Shown one piece after another: positions 46,941 to 51,404 of a DNA stretch of 64,000 bases. A program made the translations under genes and the position numbers. Numbering within the stretch: the stretch's first letter is position 1; each line of letters starts with the position of its first letter. Source of the DNA: Octopus sinensis (Eukaryota); NCBI RefSeq assembly GCF_006345805.1, contig NC_043010.1:40610001-40674000 (forward strand). The letters run 5' to 3'. The notes under the pieces are model-generated. The model was not told where the DNA came from, made no database searches, and saw only the letters and a list, made by a program, of their open reading frames with translations.

Positions 46941-48963
46941 GTGTGTGTGTGTATGCGTTTGTGCATATGTATATTCATATATATATATATATATATAAAC
47001 TTACTTGGAAATGGATATATATATATATATATGTATAAGTATATATATATATATAATATATATATATATATATGTGTGTGTGTGTGTGTGTGTGTGTGTG
47101 GATGTATATATTTGTGAATATATGTGTACAGGATGTCACCTGTAAGCAACATGAAATATGAAAACAAAGGAGTTAAATACGCAAATAACGAGAGAGAAAA
47201 AAATGGAGAACAATATTTTTGCGATCACTACACTGTATCAGCGCTAGAACTCTCTCCCGCAAACCATAGTACACGTTTTATCTCTTTCAACAATCAATTT
47301 CACTCCTCTTTAGAATTCACCTATATTTCTAATACTGCATTTAACTTTTTATCAACATCTATTACCATCAATCGCCTTCTCAGAACCTCACCATCTCCAC
47401 TGAACATTAATTTGACTTTGACTTCGCGTCGTCTTTCCCTTCTACTCATGACAATCATTCCACGCTTTTCCTCAATTATTCTGCTACTACCCCCTCAGTA
47501 GCTGCAAGCATGATGTTCAGACACTTTTCCTACATATAGAATGCATGCCCTTGGCATTGTATGTATCCATGTATATGTATGTGTGTGAGTGTGTATATGC
47601 GTGTGAAAAATACTATGTGTAAGCTTTAAAAAATAACATGAAAATATTTCGGTCTTTCTTTTAGTAAATTTCTATGATTAATTGTGGGCAGCTACATTTC
47701 AAAGCTATTTTTTACATATATATATATATATGTGTGTGTGTGTGTGTGTGTGTGTGTGTGTGTGTTGTGTGTGTGTGTGTGTGTGTGTGTGTATGTGTGT
47801 GTGTGTGTGTGTGTGTGTGTAATATGTAGGTACATAGACAGATTCATACATACGTTGATATAAGTCTCTGTGTGTGTGCATGTCTGTGTGTAAACATTGA
47901 TAGTCATGTTCGGTTGACAGTAACGTAGATTCACATATAAATCATTAATTTTTTTCTTTTTGTTTTGTAGGTTTTTTTTTTGTAATATTGATATTCTTTG
48001 TGTTCGATTTAAAACAAATGGCCTTGTGGTGACAGTTAATGAAAATTCAACTTTGTTTAAAACCACACGAATGCTTTGGGTTACATTATATTGCCTCCAT
48101 TGCTAACGTAAAATAAACTTTAATGTTGTATGAATTCCATCGAATAAAATTCGCAAATGTGGGAAAATCGCCAAGTTCTTCAATAATAATTAACTAAATT
48201 GTTCCTACGGCTGTGAGAATTGGCAGACGTTACAAAATGGCGCATTTAAATGGCTTGTGATGTTTATTGTAGTCTCATCTGTGCATCTAAGTATCGTGTT
48301 CAATTATTATCGTAGATATTCGTGTGAAGTAGTAGTAGTAGTAGTAGTAGTAGTAGTAGTAGTAGTAGTAGTAGTAGTAGTAGTTGTTGTTGCTGTCACC
48401 ATTGTTCAAAACCAGGTCAGATCCGAGCGAGCAGACTAATCATATAAGAAGCGTTCTACCCTTGCCAGTTTTGTCCCATTCAGAGATACGCAAATAAGAA
48501 CCACATTATTAACAAATATTTCCTTTACGCTTAAGTTGTTGGGTTTGAGATTAATTGAAGTATAGTGATTCGGCGGAGTAGAGTTAGAAGTAATAAGCAC
48601 ACCTCCCTCGTAATATACCGTCGAATCAGTCCTACATAGAACATACCTCTAAAAAATACGGTACAATGGCTGAATGAATACTTACGATCATTAGTGTTTG
48701 GGGTCAAGATGGCGACAAGTTTAACAGTAAATTAATGACTCAAGGAATCACACATACGCAAATGAATACACATACGCACAAGCCGGCGCATCCACACATA
48801 CATACATATATATACACACACACACACACACACACACACACACACACACATATATATATATATATATATATATAATATATATATATATATATATAATATA
48901 TATATATATATATATATATATATATATATGTATTACTTTATTTAAAGCAGCAGAAAATTCAAC

Positions 48964-49010
48964 AAAACCTGTTACTCTGAGCTTCCCGTTGCCGTTCATC
49001 GGACAGTTTT
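48964..49010 (-). ncRNA. Minimal hammerhead motif, U4C variant (decayed)
   Basis: AAAACTGT-CCGATGA-ACG gcaa CGG-GAAG-CTCAGAG-TA-ACAGGTTTT. Confidence 0.55.
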
Positions 49011-49069
49011 TGCTAGAATCGGTTATATATATATATAATATATATATGTATATATATATATATGTATGT

Positions 49070-50380
49070 ATAAAATATATATATAAAAATACAAAATTGG
49101 GACAAGAACGCAAAACACTCAGAGACGACACAAAAAACGGACGGGTCATTCGAAGCCTCTAATCTTCAGTCAAGAACCGGATCATCCTCGCAACTTCGGC
49201 TGATTAATCTTGAGATCGCTCCGATCCGACCAGCCCCAAGGAAAAACTAAGTTACGAACATTAGATTTCTTGGAAAAAGGATCGAATGTATGCGAAACAA
49301 GGACAGAAAAACGGACGATGCCATACGAATATAAATACAAAAAACAATAATAGTAATAACAGGACAAAAACAGCGGGTGTCTTACGAATTTAGACAGTTC
49401 AACTTAGCTTAGCTGGCGTATTTGGAAAAAATGCCTTTACGGCAGACGAAGAAATCGATGTTGTCGTGGTGGTGGTCAGAAGCCGAAAGGCTAGTTGACT
49501 GGCGGTCACGTGAGAGGAGAAGAGAGAGAAAAAAAGGGGGCAAAGGAATCAAAGAGAGAGAGAAAAAGAGGGACAAAGGCACCAAAGGGGAGGGGGAGAA
49601 GAGAGAGAAAGAAGGAATTAAAGAGGGGAGAAGAAAGAGAGCGTGCCAAGGATTGGCTTGACGACAGAAACAGTGAGGTGCAAAGTGAGAAAGACAGAGA
49701 AATGTGAGAGAGTGAGGGAAGAGGAGACCAAAGAATCAGAGGCGAGAAAAGTGAAAGACAGAGACTAGTGAAGTATAGGGAAAGTGTGTGAAGAAGTCGT
49801 ACGATAATCGAATGCTTACATACATAAGAGAACAAGATATACGTTACGCCGCAATAATATATGTATAAAAAATATATATAAAAATACAAAATGGGACAAG
49901 AACGCAAAACACTCAAAGAGACGACACAAAAAACGGACGGGTCATTCGAAGCCTCTAATCTTCAGTCAAGAACCGGATCATCCTCGCAACTTCGGCTGAT
50001 TAATTTTGAGATCGCTCCGATCCGACCAGCCCCAAGGAAAAACTAAGCTACGAGCATTAGATTTCTTGGAAAAAGGATCGAATGTATGCGAAACAAGGAC
50101 AGAAAAACGGACGATGCAATACGAATATAAATACAAAAAACAATAATAGTAATAACAAGACAAAAACAGCGGGCGTCTTACGACTTTAGACAATTCAACT
50201 TAGCTTAGCTGGCGTATTTGGAAAAAAATACCTTTACAGCAGACGAAGAAATCAATGTTCTCGTGGCACTGGTCAGAAGCCGAAAGGCTGGTTGACCAGC
50301 GACACGTGAGAGGAGAAGAGAGAGAAAAAAAGGGGGCAAAGGAATCAAAGAGAGAGAGAAAAAGAGGGACAAAGGCACCA
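49070..50380. repeat. Partial tandem of a structured about 520-bp non-coding repeat
   Basis: 49070-49590 and 49862-50380 are colinear with scattered substitutions. Confidence 0.9.
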
Positions 50381-50477
50381 GGGTAAGCACATAAATGTGA
50401 AACAAGGTGAGAAAAAATAGTACTCAAATACCATAGGTAGAGTAATATGCTTTATTTAAAGGCAGCAGAAATATAAG

Positions 50478-50524
50478 AAAAGCCGTTACTCAGAGTTTCA
50501 CGTTCCCGTTCGTCGGCCAGTTTT
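50478..50524 (-). ncRNA. Minimal hammerhead motif, U4C variant
   Basis: CCGACGA-ACG ggaa CGT-GAAA-CTCTGAG-TA. Inverted truncated copy on + at 50604-50629. Confidence 0.65.
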
Positions 50525-50625
50525 GTTAATTGAGAAAGATAGCTGCGCATGCTATGCCTATGATCCACTATAGTTTGTTTTCTTTCTCAATTAACAAAAC
50601 TCTCCGACGAACGGGAACGTGAAAC

Positions 50626-51062
50626 TCTCCTGGGGCTAAAAAGCTACAGTAACACTCCCACCCCCAGTGGTTAGCCATACTAAGATGGCTAGTATACTTT
50701 ACGTTGTCGAGCGCTTACTGTTTACATCTCGCTCAGAGATTTATTATTGCTTTCAGACCGTTTTTCGAAATCAGTGACAGTGGTTACTGGGAAAAACATT
50801 AAATAGATATTCGCAAACAGGTCTCTCTTATCGAAAACCCGTGATTAGCGGGTGTTGACAAGAGACAATAATCTCGAAACTGCAGTCCATGCGTATCACT
50901 TAGGTTTTCGAGAGGGGATGACCTCCCTTTGCGAATATCATTAAAGGGCACAGGATTGTGTCTAAAGCCAGCTGGAGACGATGATCTCCTGGGGTTAAAA
51001 AGCTACAGTAACACCCCCCACCCCCAGTGGTTAGCCATATTAAGATAGCTAGTATACTTTAC
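50626..51062 (+). mobile_element. Terminally redundant 359-nt retrozyme/Penelope-like unit
   Basis: 77-78-bp direct repeats at 50626-50702 and 50985-51062. Internal hammerhead and nested helices. Ends in (TA)n. Confidence 0.8.
50848..50894 (+). ncRNA. Minimal hammerhead ribozyme, U3-A8 variant
   Basis: GCGGGTG-TTGACAA-GAGA caataa TCTC-GAAA-CTGCAG-TC-CATGCGT. Predicted cut after 50887. Confidence 0.8.
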
Positions 51063-51077
51063 ATTATATATATATAT

Positions 51078-51404
51078 AAACAATTGCAGCGTGGAAGGTG
51101 TTTGTAAGCCATTTAAGAAACACACAAAAGCCGTTCGATTCGCTTCAACATTTAAGTTTAATTTGTCAAAATATTTTCATCGCTAAAATCCGCGACCTGT
51201 TCACTGACAAAAATCCGCCAGTGAACAGGCCGCAGATTTTAGCGCTGAAAATATTTTGACAAATTAAACTTAAATGTTGAAGCGAATCGAACAACTTTTG
51301 TGTGTTTCTTAAATGGCTTACAAACACCTTCCACGCTGCAATTGCTTTCGTTTCAGCACACGATCTCAGATCAAATTACTTGCTATGCGAGTACATCTCC
51401 GTAA
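51078..51404. mobile_element. Head-to-head inverted pair (about 130-bp arms) of a hammerhead-bearing repeat, in (TA)n
   Basis: 51081-51206 mirrors 51219-51345. The + copy continues to ..CATCTCCGTAA. Confidence 0.9.
51162..51211 (-). ncRNA. Minimal hammerhead ribozyme, G3-C8 variant
   Basis: TTTGTCA-GTGAACA-G-GTCGC ggatttta GCGAT-GAAA-ATAT-TT-TGACAAA. Perfect 7-bp stem I, palindromic AATATT stem III. Confidence 0.75.

Follow-up and report, generated by a model that had tools for sequence, protein, structure and literature searches.

We analysed a window of 64,000 nucleotides (nt) of Octopus sinensis DNA (assembly GCF_006345805.1, contig NC_043010.1, forward-strand positions 40,610,001 to 40,674,000), in which a stretch of about 2.5 kb is crowded with hammerhead ribozyme motifs; positions below are those of the window. 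The host genome is 2.72 Gb and rich in microsatellites, and one protein from the loci that we fetched (numbered with the prefix L) has its best named homologue in Octopus vulgaris, with 58% identity. A recent octopus repeat annotation lists Penelope-like elements (PLEs) together with hot spots of transposable elements, and its main text makes no mention of hammerheads (PMC13282606). The stretch is likely a rare pile-up of element ends, drawn from four abundant repeat families of Penelope type, here called A (with subfamily A2), B, C and D, each with its own predicted hammerhead design. From left to right, the following features were distinguished (pLTR, pseudo-long terminal repeat; LINE, long interspersed nuclear element).

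48850..48933: (TA)n array that borders A2 at its 3′ end.
48934..49022 (-): solo pLTR without tail, belonging to A2, the young subfamily of A; C3-C4-G8 core 49002-48996, with A15.1G in this copy.
49024..49086: (TA)n array common to the A2 5′ end and the B 3′ end.
49087..50380 (-): family B, one 796-nt unit (49095-49885) and a 5′-truncated partial tandem copy (49889-50380).
49150..49236 (-): B copy 1, permuted (S-G-C order) hammerhead-like fold; CUGAnGA 49169-49163; A15.1G.
49946..50032 (-): B copy 2, same permuted fold; CUGAnGA 49965-49959; A15.1G.
50384..50530 (-): family A pLTR with tail, final ~7 nt absent; core 50516-50510; TA-less join to B; 3′ end of a PLE of presumed Hydra type.
50531..50592: LINE piece between the A arms; LINE endonuclease region 50541-50592, its last 10 nt mirrored at 50531-50539.
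50590..50628 (+): A′, inverted arm of the A pair; core 50604-50610; stem III cut by a 3-nt overlap with C.
50626..51066 (+): family C, retrozyme-like; an 80-nt partial copy and one 357-360-nt unit.
50841..50900 (+): C type I hammerhead; U3-A8 core 50855-50861; predicted cut after 50887.
51067..51077: short (TA)n common to the 3′ ends of C and the inverted D arm.
51078..51217 (-): inverted D arm, lacking the tail; its minimal hammerhead is intact and has its G3-C8 core at 51204-51198.
51219..51403 (+): tailed pLTR of family D, the 3′ end of a PLE of presumed Neptune type; the junction has damaged its G3-C8 core (51221-51227).
51404..51458: (TA)n array that follows the 3′ end of D.

A first-pass annotation of this stretch had named six hammerhead cores, and all six are present: C3-C4-G8 at 49002-48996 (-), 50516-50510 (-) and 50604-50610 (+), U3-A8 at 50855-50861 (+), and G3-C8 at 51204-51198 (-) and 51221-51227 (+), its minus-strand coordinates having given the low end of each motif. 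It had assigned them to unrelated families, which is right for C and D; the three motifs listed at 48964, 50478 and 50604, however, belong to one family, A with its subfamily A2, and have a common 3′ tail. Family B (49087-50380), with its permuted hammerhead, and the 52-nt LINE piece between the A arms had been overlooked. The joining of elements through (TA)n is confirmed by arrays at the A2, B, C and D ends in the stack. The direct overlap of A′ and C also exists, but it spans 3 nt (50626-50628) and not 4 nt, because the A consensus has a G at 50629.

Only two of the six copies, at 50855 and 51204, are intact and pass our structural descriptor. The copy at 48964 has A15.1G, that at 50478 a stem I mismatch beside the core, that at 50604 is truncated within stem III and that at 51221 has lost the 5′ strand of stem I at the inversion junction. 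A relaxed-core scan, as the annotation had proposed, found four descriptor sites in the window, two of them inside the stack, against a mean of 0.4 in 30 shuffles. Moreover, 1 Mb of the genome (100 evenly spaced 10-kb stretches) contained 9 PLE-type motifs with a Watson-Crick 3-8 pair, compared with 0 in 3 shuffles. A search of the window against Rfam gave no match at gathering thresholds, and the 13 matches at E up to 10 included no ribozyme family; they were solely hairpin matches to miRNA (microRNA) models and were rejected as caused by inverted repeats. The differing 3-8 pairs had been read as natural covariation. Between unrelated adjacent families they are not; the 3-8 pair does covary in family C, among homologues found at other places in the genome. 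Of the claim that these are real ribozymes, selection on hammerhead structure is upheld by compensatory changes in C and B, with cleavage itself predicted from sequence.

Family D is the 3′ pLTR of a PLE, which its motifs place as presumably of Neptune type. Its hammerhead lies downstream of a same-strand PLE endonuclease in 20 of 27 loci (three identical source copies excluded), and the partner, 0.4-1.2 kb upstream, comprises a reverse transcriptase (RT) with a YVDD motif, a C-x3-C-x2-C linker and a GIY-YIG domain. Two loci (L245:2-2074 and L256:2-2074) hold a stop-free RT-linker-GIY-YIG frame of 691 amino acids that ends at the locus edge, and these frames are candidate recently active copies of the G3-C8 family. 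The RT identity of partner frames is based on YVDD/YRDD motifs and on homologues named as RT-domain proteins; Pfam and PDB searches of the partner proteins gave no RT match, and the Pfam match to GIY-YIG (E 3e-4) was below the gathering score. Neptune-type PLEs have a CX2-5CxxC linker (Craig et al. 2021, PMC8557442), and D, placed with Neptune over Nematis by motifs and not by phylogeny, differs from those described there in its G3-C8 core. Three near-identical 10-kb blocks with a D-family PLE (L229-L231, G000:C29) reflect recent duplication or assembly redundancy, and three more D fragments, diverged (88-89%), lie at 3380-5414 of the window.

The D core carries G3-C8 in 91 of 100 copies, and its consensus has the attributes of a minimal PLE hammerhead; in the D arm an extra G stands between positions 9 and 10.1 and stem III is a 6-nt palindrome. 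All four subfamily-level changes fall within loop II or at its edge. No C3-G8 relative of D was seen, and we infer the swap from C3-G8 from the canonical core rather than from a traced lineage. The minimal type I hammerheads of metazoan PLE pLTRs (Cervera and De la Peña 2014, PMC4209133) are alike: they have the type I order, a stem III that is short and palindromic, an extra nucleotide 9/10.1 (as in D) and many families per genome. G3-C8 (D) and U4C (A) go unmentioned in the sections of that study consulted here. It does describe opposite-strand pairs 100-700 bp apart and a U3-A8 variant in Schistosoma Cercyon PLEs. U3-A8 is known in nature (PMC3088659), as is U4C in viroids. Our literature searches, with supplements outside their scope, found G3-C8 in engineered mutants and no natural case, although Lünse et al. 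(2017) could contain one.

The 5′ ends of D were surveyed in 29 loci, the copies being found via sequence downstream of the cut site only. The majority (22/29) ended 39-65 nt upstream of the cut site, 5 inside the hammerhead and 2 far upstream; none of the 29 ended at the cut site. In long D copies, an initiator-like TCA at -59 is preceded, 30 nt away, by a run resembling a TATA box. In the 21 copies ending at -59, the preceding base was G in 10 of 13 non-templated cases (p 0.002), and in 6 of 9 (p 0.04) after removal of cases explained by an inverted arm. These ends are suggestive, though not proof, of a capped transcript start. Such a pile-up just upstream of an uncut hammerhead would offer a simple origin for solo pLTRs.

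Family A is likewise the 3′ pLTR of a PLE, in this case of presumed Hydra type. The A hammerhead lies downstream of an RT and GIY-YIG frame in 12 of 20 endonuclease-bearing loci, and this frame has YRDD, a C-terminal endonuclease, a CxCX5C linker, and CxxC and CxH around a conserved E and N. An assignment to Nematis was replaced by Hydra on account of these linker and endonuclease motifs. Hydra-clade PLEs (PMC8557442) likewise have a C-terminal endonuclease, a CxCX5C linker, CxxC, CxH, (TA)n targets and a pLTR hammerhead, whereas A, whose clade is assigned from motifs alone, has C4 in its core. Positions 3 and 8 of the A core pair as C-G in 84 of 99 copies, and the family consensus shows the minimal PLE hammerhead core with paired 3-8, stems I and II and a palindromic stem III. 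A2 is a young subfamily (97-99% identical) with the same tail as A. Its differences from A at N7, in the GNRA loop, at the stem III centre and in the stem I bulge are structure-neutral, and one other weakens the base of stem II. Background stretches (L136, L144, L212) contain a further abundant family, whose core is C3-C4-G8 and whose stem III is a 4-nt palindrome; U4C is common in this genome.

The LINE piece that separates the A arms belongs to a repeat for which at least 39 further copies were matched, and its translation is part of a restriction-like endonuclease region; from the translated motifs we take it to be of an R4/Dong-like clade. It is likely flank carried over from the A source copy. 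Both A arms carry the piece, and therefore the A pair most likely comes from one source copy inside that LINE. Elsewhere, an apparently intact two-frame LINE, presumably L1/Tx1-like (L221:3648-8198; 1176-amino-acid endonuclease-RT frame), lies directly upstream of a long A-family PLE remnant.

Family C is a non-coding tandem unit with a 357-nt period and one type I hammerhead per unit, a size within the 170-400-nt retrozyme range; two or more units were found in L039 and L051/L060. Its hammerhead has U3-A8, a 6-bp stem I with an internal loop, a 4-bp stem II and an 8-nt palindromic stem III. Nine C homologues showed double changes in 7 of 20 pairs with 96% of cells paired, compared with 21-54% in slid controls; these homologues are related by descent, and the shuffle counts are not probabilities. 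Their 3-8 pair is U-A in 5, C-G in 2, U-G in 1 and C-A in 1, giving a series of C3-G8, U3-G8 and U3-A8. On these patterns of substitution, the C hammerhead is under structural selection. All 29 of the 3′ ends aligned (26 distinct loci) fall at one of two distances from the predicted cut, +171-176 in 19 rows and +217-224 in 10, and 1 of the 26 loci starts 1 nt past a cut site. Minimum free energy folds of dimers recovered the palindromic stem III for C and not for A or D. Metazoan non-LTR retrozymes (PMC7229834; Li et al. 2026, preprint 10.64898/2026.07.22.740005) are described as sharing with C the tandem non-coding unit, the type I hammerhead, the 6-bp stem I and the 4-bp stem II, with mussel units of 350-390 bp. 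C, known here from DNA alone, differs in that its core is U3-A8, its stem III an 8-nt palindrome and its tandems mostly partial, and in its PLE tail and inversion signatures. Joining retrozyme anatomy with PLE insertion signatures, C bears on what mobilises animal retrozymes. Further U3-A8 and U3-G8 families are present in L003, L197, L200 and L178.

Family B is also a non-coding tandem unit, with no long open reading frame and no PLE protein match. The view that it is free of hammerheads was dropped after a fold with covarying stems emerged, in which the cleavage-site strand is followed by the GAAA strand and then by CUGAnGA (S-G-C order). One hairpin in B was also considered, by eye, as a hairpin or twister ribozyme, and both readings were rejected because the other conserved loops are missing. 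The fold was first read by eye and then tested on an alignment of 11 sequences that included the most diverged; one truncated copy and near-identical copies were excluded. Double changes were found in 4 of 6 pairs of stem I, 4 of 5 of stem III and 3 of 7 of an extra helix, and slid controls collapse. Relatives of B retain 14 of 23 pairs via double changes, and in one copy the two strands of stem III carry insertions that pair with each other. Stem II has two candidate partners, one upstream (98.2% paired) and one 5 nt beyond A9 (88.6% paired); with neither does its 5′ strand follow directly after CUGAnGA, as continuity of block C entails. A generic S-G-C descriptor found no match in the fetched loci. 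The published type-SGC non-circularly permuted hammerheads (PMC10085705) resemble B in their strand order, covarying stems I and III and extra helix. However, those described there keep block C continuous and come from metatranscriptome RNA, whereas B is an animal genomic repeat with an opened block C. Should the B fold cleave, non-circular permutations would extend to animal chromosomes. The two B copies in the window share private changes, and both carry A15.1G.

Penelope-type mobilisation, as had been suggested in the first pass, is supported by A and D lying downstream of RT and GIY-YIG frames. A Penelope partner for the 3′ end could be identified for A and for D, and none for B or C in the loci searched. 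The partner PLEs of A and D differ, and fragments of the two gave no BLASTP match to each other, which makes one RT shared by the families unlikely. The proposed common (TA)n target is borne out, with (TA)n of n at least 5 within 25 nt of an end in 47 of 53 A, 19 of 29 B, 11 of 39 C and 27 of 47 D loci, against 6.2% at a random position. All four families occur as partial tandems and head-to-head inverted pairs, A and D with an optional 3′ tail, a layout described as a habit of PLEs (PMC8557442), and A, C and D each have two fixed 3′ ends 45-65 nt apart. The anole Poseidon element PAc (Frangieh et al. 2024, PMC11167929) is reported to be similar in having two RT start sites that define a tail, AT-rich nicking and uncut RNA as the main template; its tails are 30-40 nt long, compared with about 45-65 nt here, where the families are known from sequence alone.

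From these features the following route may be proposed. A PLE endonuclease would nick (TA)n, and the RT would use either of two internal start sites that lie shortly downstream of the hammerhead, by the tail mechanism of the anole element. The D template RNA likely starts just upstream of the hammerhead, and that of A probably does too, such that priming in the 5′ pLTR would give solo copies of 150-200 nt. Trimming, together with microhomology of 2-3 nt, would likely have joined the truncated 5′ ends of B to A and of C to A′. Each insertion would leave TA at its edges, where later elements could land. The hammerheads are predicted to act as dimers via the palindromic stem III, with structural selection operating in the source elements, and most inserted copies would derive from uncut or re-ligated RNA.

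Each family occurs alone genome-wide, at an estimated copy number of ~10^4, and 1 Mb of background contained 4 insertions of A and 3 each of B, C and D. Clustering was tested by searching for copies of other families within about 1.5 kb of 168 distinct focal loci. The co-clustering that the first-pass annotation had anticipated was found: there were 20 other-family neighbours against about 4.6 expected from background (approximately 4-fold; conditional binomial p about 1e-4), or 6.1 after scaling for TA density, and a random distribution of the families relative to each other is thus not what we observe. Neighbour distances were 25, 134 and then 276-1199 nt, with 18 of 20 beyond 270 nt. Direct abutment is rare, a neighbour within 30 nt being seen at 1 of 168 loci, and speaks against template switching as a routine event. 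The families cluster but rarely touch, a pattern that routine template switching fits less well than does repeated insertion, one element after another, at a hot spot. One locus (L007:1380-1850, G000:C464) holds an inverted D arm and an A copy head-to-head, 25 nt apart with no TA between, and is a candidate heterologous twin-arm insertion. The present analysis adds the link between G3-C8 and an autonomous PLE, the pile-up of D 5′ ends above an uncut hammerhead, the 3-8 series in C and the measured clustering.

Taken together, these data point to serial insertion as the most likely history of the stack, which probably records five separate insertions at one TA-rich hot spot. It would be an extreme case of known Penelope behaviour, real and in large part explicable by known PLE biology, with two variant ribozymes predicted (the exchanged G-C pair of D and the rearranged strands of B), which may be natural forms not seen before. 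Microhomology at PLE 5′ junctions and tandem and inverted insertions have already been described (PMC8557442, PMC11167929). Several points weigh against this history. A- and D-type proteins, the only queries used, located no partner PLE frame for B or C in the window or in loci up to L228. TA density explains only part of the clustering, the background for which comprises 13 insertions in 1 Mb and the focal loci for which are best matches, making its figures approximate. The start-site reading for D rests on indirect signs. Divergence between paired copies is 4.8% for B, 4.2% for A, 4.8% for D and 7.4% for C, and these ages do not order the events. Moreover, the B|A and A′|C junctions lack TA, and at both the newcomer lies in tandem and points its 3′ end outward; this arrangement is a direct prediction of template switching, whereas serial insertion would yield it only by chance or bias.

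The same junctions suggest that B-A-A′-C (49087-51066) could be one compound insertion, in which two RTs, primed on the two strands of a single (TA)n site, started copying B and C RNA and then each jumped to an A RNA, with A2 and D arriving separately. The 2-3-nt overlaps at the two TA-less joins agree with this, as do outer elements that face outward like the two arms of one PLE insertion, the similar divergence of the paired copies, the head-to-head D/A pair of L007 and the template jumps proposed for rotifer PLEs. However, the LINE flank common to both arms would require the two RTs to have jumped to RNA from a single A source locus; the rarity of such close joins has been noted above, no second A′|C or B|A join was present among the best 40 matches, and the 3′ ends of B, C and A have no evident common motif. 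We therefore regard a compound insertion as unlikely. That the repeats were placed independently, without any local preference, and met by chance is very improbable. The families are very abundant, and the window was picked for its unusual look; yet neighbours are enriched to the extent given above, and a rough Poisson estimate gives ~0.002 such stacks per genome under uniform placement compared with ~0.5 at the measured enrichment. We give least credence to the junctions being assembly artefacts among repeats. The region is repeat-dense and no compared contig spans the whole stretch, but the junctions are base-precise with microhomology and the private changes are common to both B copies. Moreover, the B|A join is spanned, with 11 differences, by a contig of 172 nt from the run of another organism, and is therefore unlikely to be an artefact.

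Compatible with serial insertion, and a possibility that we take more seriously than the compound insertion while still doubting it, is that the variant cores are relics: the D G3-C8 core and the permuted B fold would no longer cleave and would ride on successful elements. That none of the 29 D copies starts at the cut site is consistent with this, as are the apparent lack of a C3-G8 relative of D, the predominance of G3-C8 and the A15.1G change in both window B copies. In addition, an engineered C3G/G8C hammerhead is reported to regain cleavage in part, and insertion in vitro to proceed without need of cleavage (PMC11167929). Against this, a pair-keeping reciprocal double change is unlikely without selection, the D subfamily changes are confined to loop II and its edge, the relatives of B keep their pairs by double changes as described above, and uncut templates are also the rule in the PLE with a cleaving ribozyme (PMC11167929). 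Fixed in a family of ~10^4 copies with an autonomous element, G3-C8 would be a natural version of the textbook rescue mutant and a direct test of the extent to which a PLE needs cleavage. At its boldest, the locus would reveal an animal genome with at least four active hammerhead designs on Penelope machinery, among them the first natural G3-C8, in the pLTR of an autonomous Neptune-type element, and an opened-core permuted hammerhead, with B-A-A′-C recording an RT switch between RNAs of unrelated families in one insertion. This we consider improbable, somewhat more so than the compound insertion by itself.

Lastly, two further observations were made in the window. At 18271 (+), a CUGAUGA...GAA motif with short stems passes the strict descriptor and may be due to chance. 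At 26983-27454, there are 2.6 tandem copies of a 184-nt unit, which we take to be like a tRNA-derived short interspersed nuclear element.

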